64,000 nt of DNA from positions 29,429 through 93,428 of the forward strand of contig CALIKQ010000005.1 of the NCBI GenBank assembly GCA_938017975.1, in the 5' to 3' direction. Made by a program: the position numbers and the translations under genes. Positions 2-60,074 of the stretch are shown one piece after another. Source of the DNA: an uncultured Pseudomonadales bacterium (GTDB lineage: Bacteria; Pseudomonadota; Gammaproteobacteria; Pseudomonadales; Azotimanducaceae). Position 1 is the stretch's first letter, and every line of letters begins with the position of its first letter. The notes under the pieces were generated by a model. That model was not told the origin of the DNA and searched no databases. It saw nothing but the letters and a program-made list of their open reading frames with translations.

Positions 2-601
2 CTGTCGAGCTATGAGATGGAGCGCGTCGATTTCAGCGCACAGTCCATCACTGTGAATCAGGCGGTCAAAACTGAAGGCACAGAGTTTGAGTTGCGTTGG
101 GTTGTCAACGATAACTTCCTCATGACCTTGGGATACAGCAATGTGGAAGCATTGATGCTTGCGACCATCGCTGCAGGCAGTGAATTCTCTTTCTTGGGTG
201 CTGAAGATCTTCCGCTGATTGATCCGGCGCTGTTATGGGGTGGCCAAGTTGGGGGGTTGATTTCAGTGGGACCGAGCAAAGGTGTTCGAGCAGGTATGCC
301 AGAGACGATTATGTCAGTAACCGGTACTTACGACTTTGGAAATGGGATGGCTATGAGTGCCAGCGTTGTCGATGTTGACTCGGTTGCATCAGGACAGTCG
401 TTTGCTGTGACATTGCCGGCCTATACGCTAGTGAATCTGAGCGTGAGCTATGAAGCCGAAGATTGGGGCCTCATTGTTGCCGCAAAGAACGTCACCGATG
501 AGCGGTATTTCAGAGCGAATTTCCCAGACTTGTTTGGAACAACAGTTGTTTTGCCTGAGTTACCACGGCATTACCAAGCGAAGCTGACCTATCGGTTTTG
601 A
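2..601 (+). CDS. TonB-dependent receptor, C-terminal fragment (5' end lies outside the window)
   Basis: The frame is open from the window edge. The translation has beta-barrel-like alternating hydrophobic repeats and ends in ...AKLTYRF with a terminal aromatic residue typical of TBDR/OMP barrels. A strong terminator follows. Confidence 0.75.
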   Translation: MSSYEMERVDFSAQSITVNQAVKTEGTEFELRWVVNDNFLMTLGYSNVEALMLATIAAGSEFSFLGAEDLPLIDPALLWGGQVGGLISVGPSKGVRAGMPETIMSVTGTYDFGNGMAMSASVVDVDSVASGQSFAVTLPAYTLVNLSVSYEAEDWGLIVAAKNVTDERYFRANFPDLFGTTVVLPELPRHYQAKLTYRF

Positions 602-5069: not shown

Positions 5070-5450
5070 TTAATGAGAATGCCTGTCGTCGTGATCATGG
5101 CTGTCATCTTGGCCGTGATCGTGGCCGTGAGGCCGATCCGAAAAAGCTTGGCTACGCGCCTGAATGTCACTCTGAGCCAGGATCGACTTATCGTTGAGCA
5201 AGCGGGTCAGGCTCTCTAAAAACAGATCAAAATAGGGATAATCTAGGGACTCAACTGAGTGTTGCTGCTCCCAATGCCTGATGTCTTCAATGAGATAAGC
5301 TCGAAACTCATCCCAATGGTAGTGCCCTGATTGACATAGCGCTTGAGCCATACCAAAAACGCGGCTCTGCCAGGGCGCGTCAAAGATGATCTCCCCGTTG
5401 GCGATGGGGGGCGCAGCGCTGCCCTCAAGTTTGAACAATGTCTCGCTCAT
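5070..5450 (-). CDS. Nitrile hydratase accessory protein (beta-subunit homolog / activator) with His/Asp-rich C-terminal tail
   Basis: It overlaps the alpha subunit by 4 nt. The N-terminus ...FDAPWQSRVFGMAQAL... resembles the NHase beta N-terminal region. The C-terminus is HGHDHGQDDSHDHDDRHSH. Confidence 0.7.
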   Translation of the reverse strand: MSETLFKLEGSAAPPIANGEIIFDAPWQSRVFGMAQALCQSGHYHWDEFRAYLIEDIRHWEQQHSVESLDYPYFDLFLESLTRLLNDKSILAQSDIQARSQAFSDRPHGHDHGQDDSHDHDDRHSH

Positions 5451-6031
5451 GGCAGGTTGACCTGGGCCACCCCGATCATGGCATCGCGGGTCACCAGTTT
5501 GGCGAGCTGGGATTCAGACAGTGTTTCAGTGCCTTTTGGCCTTTGTGGCAAGACTAGATATCGAATTTCAGCGCTCGAATCCCACACATTAATGTGGGTT
5601 GATTCAGAGAGACTTAGCCCCATTTCGCTCAGCACCTTGCGCGGTTCGGCAACGATGCGGGATCGGTAGGCCGGGTCTTTGTACCAGCTTGGTGGAAGCC
5701 CAAGGACAGCCCAAGGGTAGCAAGAGCATAGGGTACAAACGACCACGTGATGCTGGAAAGGGTCGCACTCTTTGACGACAAGCTTCTCCACTTGGCCGCC
5801 CTCGAACTGATATTCCTCGACCACCGCCGTCGCATCAACCAGTAATCGGGCTTTAAAATCAGGATCTGTCCAAGCTCGGGCAACAAGCTTGGCACCATTC
5901 ATGGGGCCGACCCGCTCTGTGTAGGTTGTAATAACGGCATCGACAGCATTTGCCGAAAGCAGCGCTTTTTCAATCAGCAGAGACTCGATCGCTTCGGTCC
6001 GAATACTCTGTGGTGAGGTGTCGTCGGTCAT
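5447..6031 (-). CDS. nthA: Nitrile hydratase alpha subunit, cobalt type
   Basis: Metal-binding motif V-C-T-L-C-S-C-Y-P-W is encoded at 5720..5737. The Thr in CTLCSC is the Co-type signature; the Fe type has CSLCSC. Length is 194 aa. Confidence 0.85.
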   Translation of the reverse strand: MTDDTSPQSIRTEAIESLLIEKALLSANAVDAVITTYTERVGPMNGAKLVARAWTDPDFKARLLVDATAVVEEYQFEGGQVEKLVVKECDPFQHHVVVCTLCSCYPWAVLGLPPSWYKDPAYRSRIVAEPRKVLSEMGLSLSESTHINVWDSSAEIRYLVLPQRPKGTETLSESQLAKLVTRDAMIGVAQVNLP

Positions 6032-8593: not shown

Positions 8594-10162
8594 CTAAGAG
8601 CTTGCGGATTGGCCGAACATTTCATTGAGATGCTGCTCTGGTAAGGGGCGAGTCAGTTTTGAGACGATGAAGGTGGTCGCCACCGAGGCAATTTCTCCCA
8701 TGACCGCACAGGAATAGGGATTAGGACCCTCTCCGTACAACCACAGCGCCGAAGTTTCTAACGCTGATCCCGTAAACCACGAGGGATCGATCAACTGTGC
8801 GTGCGCGATGATGAATACGCCAAAGCCGCTGATTAATCCTGCGAAGGCACCCGCGCGGGTCACGCCGCGCCATAAAGCGCCAACAACCAATGGTCCGGCA
8901 AAGGCGGCCATCATGCCGCCGACTCCAATCCAAACAATGAGAGCGACATTAACATCCATGAGGGACCACGCCATGAGCATGCAAATGATGAGAACGACGA
9001 CAGTGGATACTCTTGAAATGAGTAAGATTCGCTGATCGAGCAGCTCTGGGTCTAGATTCGGGTGGAGTTTGGGCGCCAACGTTCGTCGATAAAGGTCGTT
9101 GGCAATAATTTGCGATGAAGAAACAACCAAACCATCAGCGGTGCTCATGACGGCTGACAGTACCCCAACGCCCACAAGGGCCGCGAGCCAGGTGGGAAAG
9201 ATTTCTATAAACAATAGCGGCAATGATTGATTGGGATTTGCACCCTCGGCGTACAACGCGTCACCGAAGTAAGCGCGCGCCAGAAGACCTCCGAGGCCCA
9301 GCATTCCGAGCGTCAAGCCGAAGAGCGCAGCGAGCCGCACAAAAGCGAAGCGATCTTTGGTTGAATCTAGCGCCCATAGTTTATTGCCTAGGTGCGGTAG
9401 CAATCCTAGCGGCATGTGTGCAAAGGCAATGACAAAAATTGACCACCAAGAGTGATAGAGCGGTGTATTAGGATTCAGCGGCGCCGCAAGGTCCGCATCT
9501 TGGGCTTTTAGATTATCGATCAGACCACCAAAGCCGCCATCGACGCCGTAGCCGATCAATGTAAGGACGATCACCAGCACAGCGAGTACAAGCATTAAGG
9601 CGCCCTGCGCGCCGTCGGTCAAAATATCTGCATGAGCACCACCGAGTACGACGTACACAAGTAAAACAATCGTCGTAATCACCAAGGCCCACTCCGCATC
9701 GAGCCCCAGCATGATTTCGAACATGACGACCCCGGATACGAGCTGGCCAGCAAGATAGAAAAACAACACTAATGACAGAATTGAAACCGCGATTCGAAGG
9801 GCATCGGACTGATATCGGTCGCCAAGATATTCTGGAATAGAGCGGTTGCCAAAGCGATTACCTGATGTTGCGATCAGGCGCATGGAGATCAAAATTCCCA
9901 CATAAACGCCGATTGGGTATAGAAAATTGCCCCAGTTTGCGGCTAACCCCCACTCGTAACTGAGTGCGGGAGTCCCTAAAAAAGTAGCGCCACTGGCGGT
10001 TGAGGCAGCAAATGCCAATGCTAGAAAAAATGGACCGTAAGCCCCACGTGCTGTTGCAAAATCATCGGCGTGCTGAATTTTTCGCTGGGCATATAGGCCG
10101 ATGCCAATCATTGCACTGATGTAGAAAAATAAGAATATCCAAGACCAAGTTACTAAGCTCAT
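8594..10162 (-). CDS. Sodium:solute symporter family (SSF) transporter
   Basis: It is a polytopic membrane protein of about 520 aa with an SSF-like N-terminus (..YISAMIGIGLYAQRKIQHADDFATARG). I chose the start at 10162, preceded by GGAGG with a 5-nt spacer. Confidence 0.7.
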   Translation of the reverse strand: MSLVTWSWIFLFFYISAMIGIGLYAQRKIQHADDFATARGAYGPFFLALAFAASTASGATFLGTPALSYEWGLAANWGNFLYPIGVYVGILISMRLIATSGNRFGNRSIPEYLGDRYQSDALRIAVSILSLVLFFYLAGQLVSGVVMFEIMLGLDAEWALVITTIVLLVYVVLGGAHADILTDGAQGALMLVLAVLVIVLTLIGYGVDGGFGGLIDNLKAQDADLAAPLNPNTPLYHSWWSIFVIAFAHMPLGLLPHLGNKLWALDSTKDRFAFVRLAALFGLTLGMLGLGGLLARAYFGDALYAEGANPNQSLPLLFIEIFPTWLAALVGVGVLSAVMSTADGLVVSSSQIIANDLYRRTLAPKLHPNLDPELLDQRILLISRVSTVVVLIICMLMAWSLMDVNVALIVWIGVGGMMAAFAGPLVVGALWRGVTRAGAFAGLISGFGVFIIAHAQLIDPSWFTGSALETSALWLYGEGPNPYSCAVMGEIASVATTFIVSKLTRPLPEQHLNEMFGQSASS

Positions 10163-10409: not shown

Positions 10410-12926
10410 ATGAAAAAAAATCCGTTCCCAAAGATTCTGGCGCAAAGTTGTTGCTGGTTGCTGCTAATTTGTAGCAATCAACTCATTGACGTTCAGGCAG
10501 CGTCAGCCCCGGGTGCCCAGCAGATTAAGGGTGAGCTAGAGGGCATCCCGATGCATCAAATTGAGGTGTCGACTCGCCCGCATGCCGAGGTCAAGATCGC
10601 TCTTGATGGACGAGTTGACGAAGCGATTTGGCAGGAGATTCCTGCGTTTGACAATATGATTGTGGCGGTGCCTGGCACAGGTGCTAAAGGTGAGTATGCG
10701 ACGCAAATTCGTTGGTTAGCGACCGATAAAGGAATGTATGTATCCGCTGTGATGATGCAGCCCGTTGACACATTGGTCCGCCGTCTGACGCCTCGCGATC
10801 AATTTATCGATCGTGACACCTTTGGTGTGACTTTAGATACATCCGGCGAAGGCCAATTTGCCTATTGGTTCATCGTCGCGTTGGGAGACCCGGTCATGGA
10901 TGGGAAAGTATTGCCCGAGCGCCGGTATACCAACGATTGGGACGGTCCATGGATAGGGAAATCAGCAGAATTTAGCGATGGCTGGAGTGTTGAGATGTAC
11001 CTTCCTTGGGCAATGATGAACCTGCCCGAATCGGATGCAGTTCGTAGCATTGGCTTTGCGGCAAGCCGCCAAGTATCAGGTCAGAATCAGCGCTATCAAT
11101 GGCCTGGACATTCCTATTCCTCTTCAAGATTCGTCACCGCACTCAATACCATGACCTTAGAGGGTGTGGAGCCGCGACAAAGATGGAGTGTCATTCCTTT
11201 TGCCTCGGGTACCCTCGATTCAGCGAGGGACGAAAACGATCTTCGGGTTGGCATGGATGTCAGCTGGCAACCCTTACCGCTTTTGGGGGTTAATGCAACG
11301 CTCAACCCTGATTTTGGGGCTGTGGAGGCAGATGATGTTGTTTTAAACCTGACCGCCCTCGAAACATTTTTTCCAGAGAAACGCTTGTTTTTTCTAGAGG
11401 GTAGCGAAGTTTTTGAAACAACACCGAGGGCCAATTCAGGCAATAGCTTTCGAGAGGTCACGAACGAGAACTTCGCAACCACTTCCCGACGGGTTTTTGT
11501 CAGAGATTTCCTGCCAGCACCCATCAGCTTGCTCAACACCCGAAGAATTGGCGGTACTGCCAACCAAGTTGCGGTCCCGGCGGGTCAGTCTGTTAATCGC
11601 GGCGAGCGAGATCAGCCCACAAATCTGCTGGGCGCAGTGAAGTTGACCGGTGGCCAAGGCGGGTTCCGATATGGTGCTTTGTCTGCGTTCGAGGATGATG
11701 TCGCGTGGTTCGGTTCAGACACTGACGGTGCGTCCGCAGTCATCACGGATTCGGGCAGAGACTTTAGCGTGCTCAGGCTGCTGTACGAGCAGTCTGAGAA
11801 TGATCGATTTGGGGTAGGGTATTTGGGTACCCGCGTCGCTGGTTCGCAATATGACGCTGAGGTCCATGGGATTGACCTTCATTATGGAAAAAAAAGCGGT
11901 GCCTTCGGTGCGGATCTGCAATTGCTTGAAAGCGAGGTCAGAGGCGTGTCGGGAAGAGGGGCCGTACTAGATGTACGATTTGCACCCAGTGCTGCGCTAC
12001 AGCATAAATTCGAGTACGAGTATTTTGACGGCAACGTGGATATTAATGATCTCGGATTTCTTCTGCGCAACAATTATCGCGGCGGACAATACATCTTAGG
12101 GTATGCGAACCCTAAACCAGGTCGTTGGTTTCGATCTACCCGGGGCACTGTTGTTGTTCGTCACCAAGAGAATCTTTCAGATGGTCAGGTTGTTGATCAA
12201 GGGGTGTATTGGCGTAATACGTTGGTATTGAGTGGTCGTAATACGGTTCGTACCGGTCTCGGCTATCTACCGGAGCGGTTTGATGATCGAAATTCTCGAG
12301 GAAATGGCGCTTACAAAACGGTCGATCGTATTTGGTGGGATATGCTTTGGGCGACAGATGCGAGCCGACCGATCAGCCTGTCGTTTGGGTTCGGAGGTCT
12401 GCAAGAAGATTTAGGAGAATGGACTCGGAAATTCCTGATCGGCATGACTGCGCGTCTCTCAGATAGCCTGTATTTTGATCTTGACGTGAGTTACAAACGA
12501 CGGCGAGGTTGGATCGTTTATCAAGGTGGACGTTCCTTCGGCGCTTTTGATGCGGTTGATCTGCAGCCGAGTTTTGACCTGAATTGGTTGATCGCTGCCA
12601 ATCATCAAATCAAATTAAGTTTTCAGTGGGCAGGAGTCAAAGCCTACGAGCAGACCCGTTTTTCAGTACCTTTGAACGATGGTGCATTGCAGTCGGTGGT
12701 TCAAGAGCAAGTACAAGGCAATGATTTTACGGTGAGCCTTCTGACAACCCAATTACGGTATCGCTGGGAAATTGCACCGCTCACAGATTTTTACGTTGTC
12801 TACAATCGAGGCAATCAGTTGCCCCCGACTGAAAGCGATCACTTTTCAGACCTGTTGGGTGATGCGTTCAAAGACCCGATCATTAATTCTTTGGTTGTGA
12901 AACTACGCTATCGTTTTGGTAGCTAG
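10410..12926 (+). CDS. Large secreted/outer-membrane protein, CBM9-like N-terminal domain plus DUF5916-like beta-rich region
   Basis: It has a signal peptide. The motif IALDGRVDEAIWQEIP is typical of CBM9/DOMON-like modules. The long C-terminal region has alternating beta-strand patterns and ends ...VVKLRYRFGS. Confidence 0.45.
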   Translation: MKKNPFPKILAQSCCWLLLICSNQLIDVQAASAPGAQQIKGELEGIPMHQIEVSTRPHAEVKIALDGRVDEAIWQEIPAFDNMIVAVPGTGAKGEYATQIRWLATDKGMYVSAVMMQPVDTLVRRLTPRDQFIDRDTFGVTLDTSGEGQFAYWFIVALGDPVMDGKVLPERRYTNDWDGPWIGKSAEFSDGWSVEMYLPWAMMNLPESDAVRSIGFAASRQVSGQNQRYQWPGHSYSSSRFVTALNTMTLEGVEPRQRWSVIPFASGTLDSARDENDLRVGMDVSWQPLPLLGVNATLNPDFGAVEADDVVLNLTALETFFPEKRLFFLEGSEVFETTPRANSGNSFREVTNENFATTSRRVFVRDFLPAPISLLNTRRIGGTANQVAVPAGQSVNRGERDQPTNLLGAVKLTGGQGGFRYGALSAFEDDVAWFGSDTDGASAVITDSGRDFSVLRLLYEQSENDRFGVGYLGTRVAGSQYDAEVHGIDLHYGKKSGAFGADLQLLESEVRGVSGRGAVLDVRFAPSAALQHKFEYEYFDGNVDINDLGFLLRNNYRGGQYILGYANPKPGRWFRSTRGTVVVRHQENLSDGQVVDQGVYWRNTLVLSGRNTVRTGLGYLPERFDDRNSRGNGAYKTVDRIWWDMLWATDASRPISLSFGFGGLQEDLGEWTRKFLIGMTARLSDSLYFDLDVSYKRRRGWIVYQGGRSFGAFDAVDLQPSFDLNWLIAANHQIKLSFQWAGVKAYEQTRFSVPLNDGALQSVVQEQVQGNDFTVSLLTTQLRYRWEIAPLTDFYVVYNRGNQLPPTESDHFSDLLGDAFKDPIINSLVVKLRYRFGS

Positions 12927-54022: not shown

Positions 54023-54493
54023 ATGGAAGCGTTATTGGAATCAGATCTGCGAAATTGCTTTGGGGATGTAGAAGAGCTCGTCCTGCCCGACTTAGAAAAA
54101 GTGGTTTGGTCAAATCTAGACTTTCTGGGCTGGGTACATCCCTCGGGGCATCTCGGCTATATTGCAACGCGATCCCCAAAGGATGGTTGTCTGCGCGGTG
54201 TCGTTTTGCGCCGGCATGCGAGACCCTCTCGGCGCATTCGGCTTGAATTGTGCAGTTTGTGTCATCACGTGCACAGTGCGGGGGGCACCGCGATGTTTAC
54301 GATCACCGAGGCTGGCAGCCGTGGTCGGCGAATGATTTCAAATGTTGTGTGTGGTGATCTTTCCTGTAGTTTGAGAGTTCGTAATTTGATTAACCCCTCA
54401 AGTTTGATGCATGAAACGATGTATCTTGAGGCCAAAGTTTGGCGTATCCTGCAGCATCTGCATCGTTGGTTGACCCGAACAAAACATTTGTAA
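54023..54493 (+). CDS. FBP (FusB-like, elongation-factor-G-binding protein C-terminal treble-clef) domain protein
   Basis: It has LDFLGW, then C-S-L-C and later C-G-D-L-S-C-S-L-R-V-R. This matches the FBP_C zinc-finger pattern as I recall it from actinobacterial FBP-domain proteins of about 160 aa. Confidence 0.55.
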   Translation: MEALLESDLRNCFGDVEELVLPDLEKVVWSNLDFLGWVHPSGHLGYIATRSPKDGCLRGVVLRRHARPSRRIRLELCSLCHHVHSAGGTAMFTITEAGSRGRRMISNVVCGDLSCSLRVRNLINPSSLMHETMYLEAKVWRILQHLHRWLTRTKHL

Positions 54494-54596: not shown

Positions 54597-55850
54597 TTGA
54601 TTTCTCATGTCTTAGTCAATTTGAAAGAGACGTTCAAGCCTGCCGGGCAGCTGTTTTATGGCTGGTATATCGTGGCGGCAGCGGGAGGTTTGCAAATGCT
54701 AGCAAGCCTTCTTTGGATGCAGTCCTATGGGGCTTATGTCGTCTTTCTCCAACAGGAATTCGGTTGGAGTAAAACCATTGTGGCAGGTGCTTTCGCGCTG
54801 ACTCGGATAGAAAGTGGAATACTGGGCCCGCTTCAAGGTTGGCTTGTTGATCGGTATGGACCACGAGTAATCCTTCGGATTGGGGTGGTCCTTTTTGGGC
54901 TTGGATTTATTGGATTTAGTCGAGTCGAAACGCTGCTTGAGTTTTATCTGTGTTTCGCTGTGATTGCTTTGGGCTCCAGTCTAGGCGGTTTCGCTACAGT
55001 TATGGTCTCGATTGTGAGTTGGTTTAATCGTCACAGAGCTAAGGCAGTTGCTTTTTCACAGATTGGTTATGCTCTAGGCGGTATGTGTGTGCCGTTGGTG
55101 GTGTTGGCGTTAGAGGCTTTTGGATGGCGTGTCACCGCGTTTTATTCCGGCGTTCTTGTAATATTGCTAGGGCTCCCGATGTCCCAAGCGGTTCGGCACC
55201 GTCCCGAGACTTATGGGGATGTCCCTGATGGGCGGATGCTGCCAAATCACAATTCGAGCGAGCCGATGCGTGCCGATATGACAGCGCAACAGGCGATGAA
55301 AACCCCCGCGTTTTGGTTAATCAGTTTTGGGCACGCAGCGGCCTTGTTGACCGTGTCGGCAGTCATGGTGCACTTGGTGCCACATTTAACAGAGGGCCTG
55401 AATTTTTCATTGGGTCATGCTGCGTTGATGGTCACCTTGGTGACCGCCTGTCAGCTGGTGGGCCAACTGCTCGGAGGTGTGCTGGGCGATCGATTTGATA
55501 AACGTTTGATTTGTGTGCTTTGTATGATTGCCCATACTGGAGCATTGTTGCTGCTGGCCTTCGCATCGAGTCAAGTGGATGTGGTGATGTTTGCGGTGCT
55601 TCATGGTTTGGCGTGGGGCATCCGTGGCCCTTTGATGGTGGCGCTTCGAGCAGATTATTTCGGCGCTGCCTCGTTCGGCACAATCATGGGCTTTTCATCG
55701 CTTATCGTGATGCTCGGCATGTCTTTCGGTCCTTTGGTGGCAGGCTTGTTTGCCGATTATTATGGAAACTATCAGCTCGGGTTGACGGTTCTAGCGTTAA
55801 CGGCGTTTTTGGGCTGTTTTTGCTTCATGGGAGCGCGCCGGCCAGCGTAG
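54597..55850 (+). CDS. MFS transporter
   Basis: It has about 12 hydrophobic segments. The N-terminus FYGWYIV and loop motif G.L.DR.G.R are MFS-like. The start is uncertain: TTG 54597 is used here, and a later TTG at 54621 is possible. Confidence 0.7.
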   Translation: MISHVLVNLKETFKPAGQLFYGWYIVAAAGGLQMLASLLWMQSYGAYVVFLQQEFGWSKTIVAGAFALTRIESGILGPLQGWLVDRYGPRVILRIGVVLFGLGFIGFSRVETLLEFYLCFAVIALGSSLGGFATVMVSIVSWFNRHRAKAVAFSQIGYALGGMCVPLVVLALEAFGWRVTAFYSGVLVILLGLPMSQAVRHRPETYGDVPDGRMLPNHNSSEPMRADMTAQQAMKTPAFWLISFGHAAALLTVSAVMVHLVPHLTEGLNFSLGHAALMVTLVTACQLVGQLLGGVLGDRFDKRLICVLCMIAHTGALLLLAFASSQVDVVMFAVLHGLAWGIRGPLMVALRADYFGAASFGTIMGFSSLIVMLGMSFGPLVAGLFADYYGNYQLGLTVLALTAFLGCFCFMGARRPA

Positions 55851-55902
55851 TGATCGAACAATCGCTTCGATCATAGATTTGCGGCATGTCGTCGCAAAAA
55901 TT

Positions 55903-57066
55903 TTAGTGCGAGGCGCTCGGTGAATTTTTTGCGCTCTCAAAGGCGGTAATGCCCAAGGCTTCACGAATCGCGATTCCCGCTGGGGACGTCATGTCATCGA
56001 CGGGGATGCCTGTCGCATCGGCGATTCTCACCATGCGTTGAAAGTTAGCGGCAACGCCCGCTGCCTCGATAACAAGCTCAGGTGATGTCGCGTTTAACAG
56101 GTCAGTTCTTGCTGAGGCCAGGCGTTGCTGGTCGTCTGACATGAAAGCTTCAGAAAAAGATAGCAGGAGTTGGCCATGAACAATGCCCCGATGGGCAGCC
56201 GTTTTATCGCCCAGCAAAGCATCTAGATCGATCTCTGTCTCTGTGACGTGGGCGCTCGCACGGAGCATCCCTGCATGGGCATTCGTTCAGTAAAAGCAAC
56301 GATTAATTGCAGACACGCGCCCTGCAATCAGTTCCATTTGCAGTCTGTTTAAGACCCTGGAATTGGCTTGGACCAGATTGCCCATTTCTTCCAGGTGTAA
56401 ATAAAAGGCGCCTGCGATCCGTTTCCATTGTCTTACCAGATCCGGTGTGGCAGATAGCGCGCGAACGACATTGGCGCCAAATCCCGTTGGCCACAAATCT
56501 TCATTAGCCACCGTCAAACCTAATTTAGGAATCATCGGAACAAATCCAGTGCTTTGCTCAAGCGAGGGTGGCTGGCTTTGCGAGGGGACGCCTGGTTTTG
56601 GCTGGGGCAGCGGAGGCGGTGCTAGATCCAGTGCTCGGTGGAATTCGTCGATGCTAAAAATACAGACCACAAGGCCGACGAGCTCAACGTAGGCCAGTTT
56701 GGATAGTCCATCCTTTTCAAGTGCATCCACCTGAGCTCGTGTAATACGCCCTTGATCGGTAATGATTTGATGAATCATGTCGATGATTTTTTCGTCAAGG
56801 ATCAATGAGGGTGCGTGCTGGGCTTGAACAGACCTCCGAGATAACGCAGCCTTTTTTTCGTCGCATAGCCTACAATGCTTGGCCAAGCGACTTTCAGCGG
56901 CGATGGCAATTTTTTCGGAGGCTGTCCACCAATAGCCAGGCTCGCTGAGGTAATCGAGGTGCGCCTCGATAGCGCTTTGAATATCAGCGCGATTGTCTAA
57001 GGCGGACAGCAATAAGGGTGCATCGGCGGTCAAGAGCGTTACTCTGAGACGGGATGTTAGAAACAA
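55903..57066 (-). CDS. Two-domain carboxymuconolactone-decarboxylase/AhpD-like redox protein, predicted selenoprotein (in-frame TGA at 56287..56289 read as Sec260)
   Basis: Tracked ORFs 56287..57066 and 55903..56268 share one frame and are separated only by a TGA plus 6 sense codons. Read-through gives ...ELIAGRVSAINRCFY-U-TNAH..., the AhpD-core C-x-x-C-x-x-x-H motif with the TGA at the second Cys. The N-terminal domain carries an ordinary C65-R-L-C68. Confidence 0.6.
56250..56271 (-). other. Candidate bacterial SECIS-like hairpin downstream of the in-frame TGA
   Basis: The minus-strand sequence is GGG(A)UGCUC-CGUGC-GAGCGCCC. This gives an 8-bp stem including one G-U pair, with a 1-nt bulge and a 5-nt loop. 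It begins 15 nt after the TGA, and the loop starts 24 nt after the TGA. Confidence 0.35.
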
Positions 57067-57411
57067 TACTGATTCAAAGTTGGTTCTACAACTCTAACCT
57101 CTGAATGCTGAGCGACAACGCACAAAATGCTATCGCACGGGATCGATGATACGTTAACTGTTTGCCGACCTGAATCTGAACTCCGTGATGGTGCATTAGG
57201 CCGATTGACGAGATTTGTGGCATTTGCTCGATTGATCGATCATAAAGTCGCTCTTTGTTGTTTCGAGCAGGCTATAATTTGTAAACCAGCGTGTTCACAT
57301 CCCAGGCTACGGTAGCTCAGGATTGGATAGTAATGTCGGTCGGCCGAACTGGATGTGAAGGTGAGCAGGTCGGCAGAAGGGTGGTTTACATGAGAAAAAC
57401 GAGGGGTCGAT

Positions 57412-57975
57412 GTGATTAATACGCCGCAGGCCTGGTTAGCTGAGGTTGGTATTGAACGGTTTCGTCTCAGGCGGCAGCCAGAGCGGCAGAGGTCAGTGCT
57501 GCAGACACAGCAGGTTTCCGTGGCCGCAGAGACAGCTGTTCTCGAACCGCCGCGCGGTGATCTTGATACCGTTGTTGAGTGGACTGCGCGAATTCGAAAC
57601 TATCGGACGGTGGCGACATTAACTTGCTTTGATGAAACGCTGTCGGCATCGGACTTCAAGATGCTTGAACGCCTATCAAATGATATAGGAACCGCCGTTA
57701 ATGGCATGGCGATCCAGCCGTTGGTGCAAGAACAACGATTCAGCACTCTGGGCACTGACTTGATCGATGCGGAGCGTGTCCAGCGCTGGCTACAAGACCT
57801 GCCCGGATCTGTTGTGTTGCTTGCCGGTAATTGCACCGCATTTTCAAATCTCTTGATTCGCGCCGGTCAGATTCGAGAACCTGCTCCGATCTTGATCAGC
57901 GGAATTTTAAGTGCGTCTGAAATGCTCGAGAAAAAGCGGGAATTGTGGCGAGCACTGAGCGCTCAGATTCATTAG
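57412..57975 (+). CDS. holD: DNA polymerase III psi subunit-like protein (divergent, extended)
   Basis: It lies immediately upstream of rimI, as in the enterobacterial holD-rimI arrangement. The N-terminus QAWLAEVGIERFRLRR parallels E. coli HolD DWQLQQLGITQWSLRR. It has a GTG start. Confidence 0.5.
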   Translation: MINTPQAWLAEVGIERFRLRRQPERQRSVLQTQQVSVAAETAVLEPPRGDLDTVVEWTARIRNYRTVATLTCFDETLSASDFKMLERLSNDIGTAVNGMAIQPLVQEQRFSTLGTDLIDAERVQRWLQDLPGSVVLLAGNCTAFSNLLIRAGQIREPAPILISGILSASEMLEKKRELWRALSAQIH

Positions 57976-58496: not shown

Positions 58497-60074
58497 ATGA
58501 CCCGCTCTGAAGTCGATCGACGAAGAACGTTCGCGATAATCTCTCACCCCGACGCGGGTAAAACTACGATCACAGAGAAATTATTGTTGCTGGGAAAAGC
58601 CATACAAATGGCTGGAACCGTCAAGTCCAAAAAGTCAGACCGCTACGCGACATCAGACTGGATGGCGATGGAAAAAGAGCGGGGTATCTCGGTGACTACC
58701 TCAGTGATGCAGTTCCCTTACCGTGACTGTGTCGTCAATTTGCTGGACACGCCGGGTCACGAAGATTTTTCTGAAGATACCTATCGGACGCTGACCGCGG
58801 TTGATTCTGTGCTCATGGTTATCGACGGCGCCAAAGGTGTTGAAGACCGAACCATTAAGCTGATGGAGGTCTGTCGGCTTCGAGACACGCCAATTTTAAC
58901 TTTCATCAACAAATTAGATAGGGAGATCAAAGAACCTATCGAACTGCTGGATGAAGTTGAGGCGGTGTTGAATATTGACTGTGCCCCGATGACCTGGCCC
59001 ATCAGTATGGGGCAGCGCTTTCAAGGGGTTTATCACCTCTATGAAGACTGTATTTACCCCTATCGAGGAGAAGTACTGGCGCCTCTGTCCGAACCCGAGC
59101 GGATTGAAGGCCTTGATAGTCCGGCTGCGCGAGATCTTTTGGGCGATCGCTGGGACGACTTCAAAGATGAAATTGAGTTGGTGCGGGGTGCTTCACACGA
59201 ATTTGATCAAGCAGCTTATTTGGCGGGCACTCTGTCTCCGGTCTACTTTGGTACGGCTCTGCGCAATTTCGGGGTGATGGAGATGCTTGATGGGTTCGTC
59301 GCCATGTCACCGTCACCGCTGCCAAGAGAAACCACGGGTCAGCGGGTTGATCCCAATAACCCAGAATTTTCAGGGTTTGTTTTTAAGATCCAAGCGAACA
59401 TGGACCCAAAGCACCGGGACCGTATTGCTTTTTTGAGGGTTTGCTCGGGGACTTATGAGCAAGGGATGCGGATGCATCATGTCCGCTTGGGCAAGGATGT
59501 CAAAATCAGCGATGCGGTGACCTTTCTGGCTGGCGAGCGAGCGGCCATTGGACATGCCTTTGCTGGCGATATTATTGGCCTGCATAATCACGGGACTATT
59601 CAGATTGGTGATACTTTCAGTGGCGGCCGGAAAGATCGCTTCATTGGAGTGCCGCATTTTGCCCCAGAGTTGTTTCGCCGAGTTCGACTGAAAGATCCGC
59701 TGAAGAGTAAGCAATTGCGCCAAGGCTTGACTCAGCTCTCAGAGGAGGGCGCAACTCAAGTTTTTATGCCGCTCACCAATAACGATCTTATCTTGGGTGC
59801 GGTGGGGGTCTTGCAGTTCGATGTCGTGGCCTATCGCTTGAAAGATGAGTACAAGGTCGATTGTGGTTACGAGTCTGTCGCTGTGAACACAGCACGCTGG
59901 GTGGTCTCATCCGACCTTAAACAACTAGAAGAATTCAAACGTAAGGCTGAAGGCCATCTGGCTTTAGATGGTGGTGGTCATCTGACCTATTTGGCGCCAT
60001 CGCGTGTAAATTTATCGTTGATGGAAGAGCGTTGGCCTTCAATTGAGTTTAGAGCCACTCGAGAGATTGCTTGA
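58497..60074 (+). CDS. prfC: Peptide chain release factor 3 (translational GTPase)
   Basis: It has [23 protein letters not shown] (G1), DTPGHEDF (G3) and NKLD (G4). Length is 525 aa. Confidence 0.92.

Follow-up and report, generated by a model that had tools for sequence, protein, structure and literature searches.

Two open reading frames (ORFs) lie one behind the other on the minus strand of the 64-kb window (the whole stretch of DNA that was analysed), at 56287..57066 (259 aa) and at 55903..56268 (121 aa, starting with MLRASAH). Both are in the same reading frame. The 259-aa ORF ends with ...LIAGRVSAINRCFY followed by a TGA, and only this single codon (56287..56289) and six sense codons (T-N-A-H-A-G) separate the two ORFs. 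Reading through the TGA gives C257-F-Y-[TGA]260-T-N-A-H264, in the numbering of a 387-aa product, and a further cysteine pair, C65-R-L-C68, is encoded at 56863..56874. An earlier note on this DNA had described the shared frame, the lone TGA, the six-codon gap, the residues C257 and H264, and the position of C65-R-L-C68, and each of these was found as it had been stated. The features of the locus are listed in Table 1.

Table 1. Features of the predicted selenoprotein gene, in window coordinates
Feature	Position	Strand	Details
Complete gene, very probably encoding a selenoprotein	55903..57033	-	~376 aa; 387 aa from the longest-ORF start, TTG 57066
True stop codon, TAA	55903..55905	-	Sequence
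C-terminal AhpD/CMD-like catalytic domain, interrupted by the UGA	55906..56487	-	~Residues 194-387; Pfam CMD, PDB profile hits
SECIS-like hairpin	56250..56271	-	Starts 15 nt past the UGA; GGG-A-UGCUC / loop CGUGC / GAGCG-CCC
Active-site helix-turn	56275..56334	-	Relay Glu245, Cys257, Tyr259, predicted Sec260, His264
UGA, very probably read as selenocysteine	56287..56289	-	U260 (387-aa numbering), U249 counted from 57033
Pro-rich interdomain linker	56551..56625	-	LAPPPLPQPKPGVPSQSQPPSLEQS; sequence
N-terminal helical domain with invariant C65-x-x-C68	56626..57033	-	AF2 model, invariant residues

The 387-aa protein that had been proposed for the read-through gene is correct as the length counted from the TTG at 57066, but the TTG at 57033 is the likelier start, since gene callers use it on 80 contigs and the alignment with the profile of the protein family (NF041238, see below) begins at residue 26. 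The protein is thus more likely ~376 aa in length than 387 aa. The gene is monocistronic. It converges on a gene for an MFS transporter (54597..55850, plus strand) and is divergent from an unknown ORF (57412..57975), rimI and prfC; further neighbours in the window are genes for acyl-CoA enzymes. A promoter-like site (57239..57266) and a terminator-like site (55878..55898), both consensus matches only, flank the gene. The G+C content of the window is 51.6%.

Elsewhere in the window, TGA is an ordinary terminator, as had been noted before. It ends 19 other long ORFs among 52, including 17..601 and the prfC ORF (58497..60074), whose family profile is matched end to end. Because TGA is the normal stop of these other long ORFs, the genome is not recoded, and a genome that uses TGA as a sense codon can be ruled out. 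The other candidates for an in-frame TGA in the window were also rejected, as each of them lies at an ATGA-type junction between genes or overlaps a longer ORF of the other strand. One of these candidates, 5447..6031, encodes a complete nitrile hydratase alpha subunit.

The read-through protein was compared with protein family models, with Cys put in place of the stop. The NCBIfam equivalog NF041238, AhpD_rel_CFYUT, which stands for alkylhydroperoxidase-related (seleno)proteins, matched with 395 bits (E = 3.3e-118; cutoff, 175), and the match extends over residues 26-378 of the protein and positions 2-357 of the 357 in the profile. The name of this model spells the C-F-Y-U-T motif of the window protein, in which U corresponds to the in-frame TGA. 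Zhang, Fomenko and Gladyshev (2005) reported "hypothetical protein 1" of the Sargasso Sea selenoproteome, a selenoprotein family new at the time, for which they showed a conserved CXXU and a predicted SECIS (PMC1088965). NF041238 is tabulated as this CxxU "hypothetical protein 1" (PMC13188914), and selenoproteome reviews of today list the family. Given the 2005 description and the curated model named after the motif, the family was already known, and the novelty implied by the earlier note does not hold. The window protein resembles the family in its full-length match, its C-F-Y-U-T motif, its CxxU, the SECIS-like hairpin downstream and the marine gammaproteobacterial distribution, and no material difference was found. 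It is a typical, ordinary member of a known selenoprotein family.

Membership of the AhpD/CMD superfamily, which had been proposed from the motif, was borne out both by Pfam and by structural relatives. Pfam CMD (PF02627) matched residues 227-280 with 30.2 bits (gathering score, 23; C put for U), and profile hits in the PDB were obtained for the C-terminal half with 2pfx, 3c1l, 6k40 and 2oyo (E = 1e-8 to 3e-5). The score for bona fide AhpD (TIGR00777) was 14.9 bits, far under the cutoff of 191.95, and that for the peroxidase-related enzymes (TIGR01926) was 43.8 bits against a cutoff of 81.8, with residues 194-357 aligned.

The active site was examined by alignment with the structural relatives. 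The stretch ...LSKLEREMIAVVVSSINKCFYCLVAH... of 2pfx aligns with ...LNRLQMELIAGRVSAINRCFY[U]TNAH... of the window protein, and the residue alignment with 2pfx and 3c1l follows the pattern ...E-x11-CFYC-xxx-H. In the family, E245, C257, F258 and Y259 are invariant. A proton relay consisting of Glu118/Cys130/His132/Cys133/His137 has been described for AhpD of M. tuberculosis, and one consisting of Glu36/Cys48/Tyr50/Cys51/His55 for PA0269 (PMC3141380). The corresponding residues of the window protein (E245, C257, Y259, U260 and H264) have a spacing identical to that of both relays. Judged by this alignment, the predicted Sec260 is the counterpart of the second relay Cys, which is Cys133 in M. tuberculosis AhpD. 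From the mutagenesis literature, we take Cys133 to be the nucleophilic Cys of that enzyme.

The fold of the whole protein was read from a Cys-form homolog, P0078, and the window protein's own model is that of its N-domain. The AF2 model of P0078 (pLDDT 91.1, pTM 0.92) is all-helical. It matched AhpD folds (6k40, 2prr and 3c1l) with a TMt of 0.62-0.70 over ~200 columns, which correspond to half of the model.

Homologs were collected in two protein searches and one genome scan. In a word-indexed search of 5.8 billion proteins, ~120 top homologs were inspected. Almost all of them are 244-248 aa in length and end exactly with ...CFY, the gene calls having been cut short at one and the same codon. 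The full-length exception is P0078 (383 aa, ...ECFYCTNAHAMMLR). With the 127 residues that follow the UGA as the query, phmmer in an exhaustive search yielded 753 cluster representatives, and most of the best 150, which were inspected, start at the Met seven codons past the UGA; these entries are orphan C-terminal gene calls. Only five among the best 150 are full-length (P0078, P0150, P0205, P0269 and P0149). All five have Cys at the Sec position, within CFYC, CYYC or CVYC, and the codon is TGC in all four of the genes whose DNA was examined. As stated in the earlier note, the TGA falls on the second Cys of a C-x-x-C-x-x-x-H motif, where the rare full-length homologs have Cys.

The genome scan covered one genome per species of GTDB r232. 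Since all of its peptide patterns lie upstream of the stop, the scan did not select for TGA. At least 586 stretches encoding a relative were found, and the best 80 loci were used. They belong mostly to marine Pseudomonadales MAGs, with Ca. Azotimanducaceae/HTCC2089, OM182, Pseudohongiella and Halioglobus among the groups represented, and the closest is a Candidatus Azotimanducaceae (HTCC2089) MAG (L001, 73% identity). The 80 loci and the window together gave 85 gene copies, with four paralog pairs and one CYY-U variant counted. The aligned codon is TGA in 85 of the 85 copies and is followed in frame by T-x-x-H-x-x-M-L-R. Past the TGA, the next stop in frame follows only after 121-162 codons in all of the 81 complete copies (121-131 codons in 78 of them), and the majority-residue conservation amounts to 0.709 before the TGA and 0.710 after it. 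That the arrangement is no product of chance, and that it represents one gene and not two, had been argued from the window sequence; both points are upheld by the TGA in every copy, by the conserved open frame after it and by the equal conservation on its two sides. The expectation that most homologs would have Cys and some TGA was reversed by the data: in the NF041238 family, Sec is the dominant state and Cys is the minority state.

A bacterial SECIS is a stable stem-loop that closely follows the UGA and has a guanosine in its small apical loop (PMC1088965). The hairpin listed in Table 1 fits this published description. Its 22-nt segment has a fold energy of -10.0 kcal/mol, and its apical loop (56258..56262) contains a G. 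The fold of the 68-nt stretch is not unusual by itself (z-score, -0.09). Rfam gave no SECIS family in the whole window at the gathering threshold or in 56100..56400 at E <= 10, and no Rfam family matched the hairpin; the lone hit, a sub-threshold match of the XIST A-repeat to an unrelated small hairpin, was taken as chance.

The conservation of the hairpin was assessed in 80 distinct sequences. Its core pairs are standard pairs in 75-80 of the 80. Covariation of the stem was not significant, with observed values not above those of shuffles, and it is uninformative here because the stem is almost invariant. In place of covariation, synonymous-site entropy was scanned in 215 sliding windows, with the expectation taken from the genes' own codon usage. 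At codons +8 to +11 past the UGA, Leu is encoded by CUC in 78/79, Arg by CGU in 72/76, Val by GUG in 49/50 and Ser by AGC in 77/79. These codons retain 4-13% of the expected synonymous entropy, against a gene-wide mean of 92 ± 16%, and the five informative codons that include +12 (73%) form the lowest of the 215 sliding windows. Little variation is likewise seen in the Tyr codon that precedes the UGA (TAC in 77/79). Since the codons of the hairpin show the least synonymous variation in the gene, the suppressed variation marks a SECIS embedded in the coding sequence.

The hairpin segment folds at -4.2 kcal/mol or lower in all 84 Sec-form copies that were scored together (mean, -6.2 kcal/mol), and at -4.7 kcal/mol in a further copy, L064. 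Among the four Cys-form genes that served as a control, three have no hairpin (0 to -2.7 kcal/mol), and one, L086, has a hairpin of -7.9 kcal/mol at the equivalent site; this hairpin might be a SECIS fossil or a matter of chance. The residues M-L-R-x-S are lost in the Cys forms. This loss suggests, within a small Cys-form control, that the RNA, and not the protein, is the reason why the Sec forms keep the M-L-R-x-S codons. The SECIS-like element anticipated after the UGA is therefore present as a conserved hairpin in every Sec-form copy.

Collectively, it is very probable that one gene at this locus encodes a member of NF041238 that contains selenocysteine, the Sec being inserted at the UGA of 56287..56289. 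It could also be supposed that the UGA is read through without Sec, as might happen in a lineage that lost the Sec machinery, with a near-cognate or suppressor tRNA inserting Trp, Cys or Arg. In line with such a loss, tblastn with SelA, SelB and SelD of E. coli found none of them in the 64-kb window or in the ±10-kb flanks of the 80 loci, the sole signal being the GTPase-domain similarity of SelB to prfC, and ARAGORN found no tRNA-Sec in the same regions. However, Sec-free read-through is at odds with a stop placed on the catalytic Cys position, where the sole alternative codon in homologs is one for Cys, with the use of TGA as the terminator of 19 other genes in the window, and with the curation of NF041238 as a selenoprotein family. 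In addition, a hairpin at SECIS distance, with a small G-containing loop and with synonymous sites fixed across 80 genomes, would be expected if SelB were recruited, but not from leaky read-through. We regard insertion of an amino acid other than Sec by this route as quite improbable.

A pair of independent genes, the first for a protein of 248-259 aa with ...CFY at its end and the second for a 121-aa protein that begins with the Met of MLRASA, would agree with the output of automatic gene callers and with the ATG that lies 7 codons past the TGA. In public collections, the 248-aa fragment of the window gene is found on 80 contigs (the longest, 204 kb) and the 121-aa fragment on 60, and the two are stored as separate, unnamed gene calls. 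Nevertheless, conservation extends over the six codons between the ORFs (T-x-x-H-x-x), among them that of the catalytic His, and a boundary at this place would split the AhpD domain through its active-site helix. The pieces are adjacent and in frame in 85 of the 85 copies, and the Cys-form homologs are single full-length proteins. The conserved gap codons, the cut domain and the full-length Cys forms effectively refute the division into two genes, which we consider very unlikely. A pseudogene or sequencing error, in which TGC or TGT of a plain Cys protein was altered by one base to TGA, is refuted by the comparative data and has a negligible probability: the same TGA occurs in 85/85 copies from independent assemblies, the exact product recurs on 80 contigs, and conservation downstream equals that upstream with no further stops accumulating.

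For a single gene encoding a selenoprotein, the following mechanism can be proposed. During translation, the UGA at 56287..56289 would be decoded as Sec; the conserved RNA element points to the hairpin, which lies within the coding sequence, as the site that would recruit SelB carrying Sec-tRNA(Sec). The product would be a two-domain, all-helical protein of ~376 aa, in whose C-terminal domain the predicted redox pair Cys257-x-x-Sec260 would sit in a complete AhpD relay (Glu245, Tyr259 and His264). By analogy with AhpD, Sec260 would be activated via the Glu/Tyr/His relay and act as the nucleophile on an oxidised partner, which might be a disulfide or sulfenate of the peroxiredoxin type, or on peroxide directly. 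A selenenylsulfide with Cys257 would then be formed and later reduced, again as in AhpD. More speculatively, the N-domain with its own CxxC may serve as a built-in partner or redox relay. An alkylhydroperoxidase-related redox function is suggested by analogy only, because the scores are far under the TIGR00777 and TIGR01926 cutoffs and there is no AhpC or other conserved partner among the neighbours. Across the best 80 loci, no gene neighbour, including ahpC, is conserved, and the best neighbour cluster occurs at 17 of the 80 loci, at variable distance.

The window protein shares the all-helical AhpD fold with M. tuberculosis AhpD (TIGR00777) and PA0269 (PDB 2ijc/2o4d), together with the relay Glu-x11-Cys-x-(His/Tyr)-Cys-x3-His in identical spacing; at the third relay position it has Tyr, as does PA0269. 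It differs from both in the predicted Sec that replaces the second Cys and in an additional N-terminal CxxC domain of ~140 aa with a Pro-rich linker. From bona fide AhpD it differs further in the absence of an ahpC neighbour and in the TIGR00777 score (14.9 vs 192). In both sequence and fold, the C-terminal domain is closest to the TIGR01926-like, "peroxidase-related" proteins 2pfx, 3c1l (Mlr4105), 2oyo, 2prr and 6k40. The active-site string INKCFYC of 2pfx corresponds to INRCFY[U] in the window protein; unlike the latter, 2pfx-type proteins consist of a single domain of ~190 aa and have Cys instead of Sec. The AhpD-like 1/2 and CMD-domain selenoproteins of marine metagenomes (GOS, PMC2398784) also have a CxxU in an AhpD/CMD fold and are likewise marine, but they are separate families (TIGR01926 and PF02627), and NF041238 is tabulated apart from them (PMC13188914). 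These selenoproteins are presumably single-domain, since the TIGR01926 and PF02627 models are ~85-180 positions long.

The N-terminal half of the protein (residues ~12-147) has C65, C68, W46/W47 and R60 as invariant residues and gave no Pfam match. When the N half was compared with the C half by hhalign, only 14 columns at the helix and CxxC could be aligned (E = 0.078, not significant). The AF2 model of the window's own N-domain had a pLDDT of 89.1, and its top 12 Foldseek matches in the PDB are all AhpD-like (TMq 0.58-0.62, probability 0.84-0.99), with weak E-values (0.09-1) and an rmsd of 7-9 Å. The CxxC of the N-domain is without the Glu/His relay, with Ile 12 residues before C65 and Lys 4 residues after C68. 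In the P0078 model, the counterpart of the interdomain linker (~residues 138-190) is non-helical. The "double-CMD" protein of the earlier note is therefore sustained in part: the fold of the N-domain matches AhpD-like structures (TM ~0.6), but the E-values are weak, the hhalign comparison is not significant and the relay is missing. With moderate confidence, the modelled N-terminal half is probably a divergent, degenerate second AhpD-like domain. In the literature, we found no discussion of a two-AhpD-domain architecture or of the strong dominance of Sec over Cys in the NF041238 family, and the probable cryptic second AhpD-like domain is the residual novelty of this gene.

A more far-reaching proposal is that the N-domain is a cryptic, degenerate AhpD-like domain whose CxxC, as a built-in dithiol, resolves or recycles the Cys-Sec pair, the whole protein being a fused pseudo-heterodimer with a self-contained relay. 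We think this rather unlikely; if true, it would represent a self-contained redox relay in a sestrin-like architecture. Sestrin2 (PDB 5dj4) has two AhpD-like helical halves, as proposed for the window protein, and a weak whole-length Foldseek alignment was obtained between it and the P0078 model (354-399 columns, TMq 0.42-0.45). With an rmsd of 12-15 Å and E = 0.2-0.7, and with Sestrin2 being eukaryotic and devoid of Sec, this likeness is an architectural analogy only.

The biological interest of the gene is modest, and the main practical use of the analysis is in annotation. The raw sequence alone had been enough for the earlier note to recover what is very probably a selenoprotein. The mis-annotation as two genes that had been predicted is real at the level of records (calls of 248 and 121 aa), even though the family is curated. 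Even the NCBI entry that carries the name "(seleno)protein" (MDG1114349.1) is a truncated protein, of 244 aa. For the window gene, the record could be put right by joining the two calls into one and marking U260; nearly all of its relatives are split in the same way.

The neighbourhood of the CFYUT gene, the selenoprotein gene of NCBIfam NF041238 (AhpD_rel_CFYUT), was compared among the 80 best homologous loci from reference genomes. In the window and in the flanks of its four closest relatives (loci L001, L002, L003 and L075), the selenoprotein gene was found near prfC. This proximity is local synteny confined to close relatives, and no neighbour conserved across all 80 loci was found. Neither of the two ORFs flanking the locus in the window had an NCBIfam match at E <= 1e-5. 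Four reference genomes were found to carry two CFYUT paralogs each, a short distance apart, and every one of these paralogs has its own in-frame TGA and its own hairpin.

Coordinates of features in the window and in the reference loci
Feature	Location	Strand	Detail
prfC (release factor 3)	window 58497-60074		near selenoprotein gene
ORF flanking the locus	window 57412-57975	+	187 aa
ORF flanking the locus	window 54023-54493	+	156 aa
Small GC-rich hairpin within coding region	window 56154-56198	-	UGCCCAUCGGGGCA; inverted repeat 56184-56197
Nitrile hydratase alpha subunit	window 5447-6031	-	TIGR01323, 272 bits
P0150, Cys-form (TGC) homolog gene	L086/L087 3001-4140
CFYUT pair	L028		TGA at 10702 and 12011
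CFYUT pair	L066		TGA at 10687 and 13162
CFYUT pair	L069		TGA at 9353 and 10702
CFYUT pair	L072		TGA at 10768 and 15598

The small GC-rich hairpin within the coding region gave an Rfam match to the XIST A-repeat below threshold (23.3 bits vs 33) and was also called terminator-like; both signals are most likely due to chance. In the gene for P0150, a hairpin is retained at the SECIS-equivalent position (-7.9 kcal/mol), which may be a fossil SECIS left by Sec-to-Cys conversion, or may have arisen by chance. The neighbours of this gene encode a GST, a glyoxalase, an enoyl-CoA hydratase, an alpha/beta-hydrolase, a DJ-1/PfpI-AraC regulator and a second CMD-family protein.

Elsewhere in the window, the TGA stop of the nitrile hydratase ORF is followed by 67 open codons. 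This ORF was rejected as a read-through candidate because the alpha subunit is already complete against its profile.

The metagenomic homolog P0128 (204 aa) has its N-terminal ~50 residues fused straight to ...SHAMMLRASV..., so that neither the CxxC of the N-domain nor the CFYU motif is present; this arrangement looks like the product of an internal deletion or of chimeric assembly. The homolog P0004 (NCBI MDG1114349.1) is named 'alkylhydroperoxidase-related (seleno)protein'; despite that name, the deposited protein is cut off at the UGA and comprises 244 aa. The two fragments of the window gene are likewise annotated as separate, unnamed gene calls, P0270 on 80 contigs and P0283 on 60.
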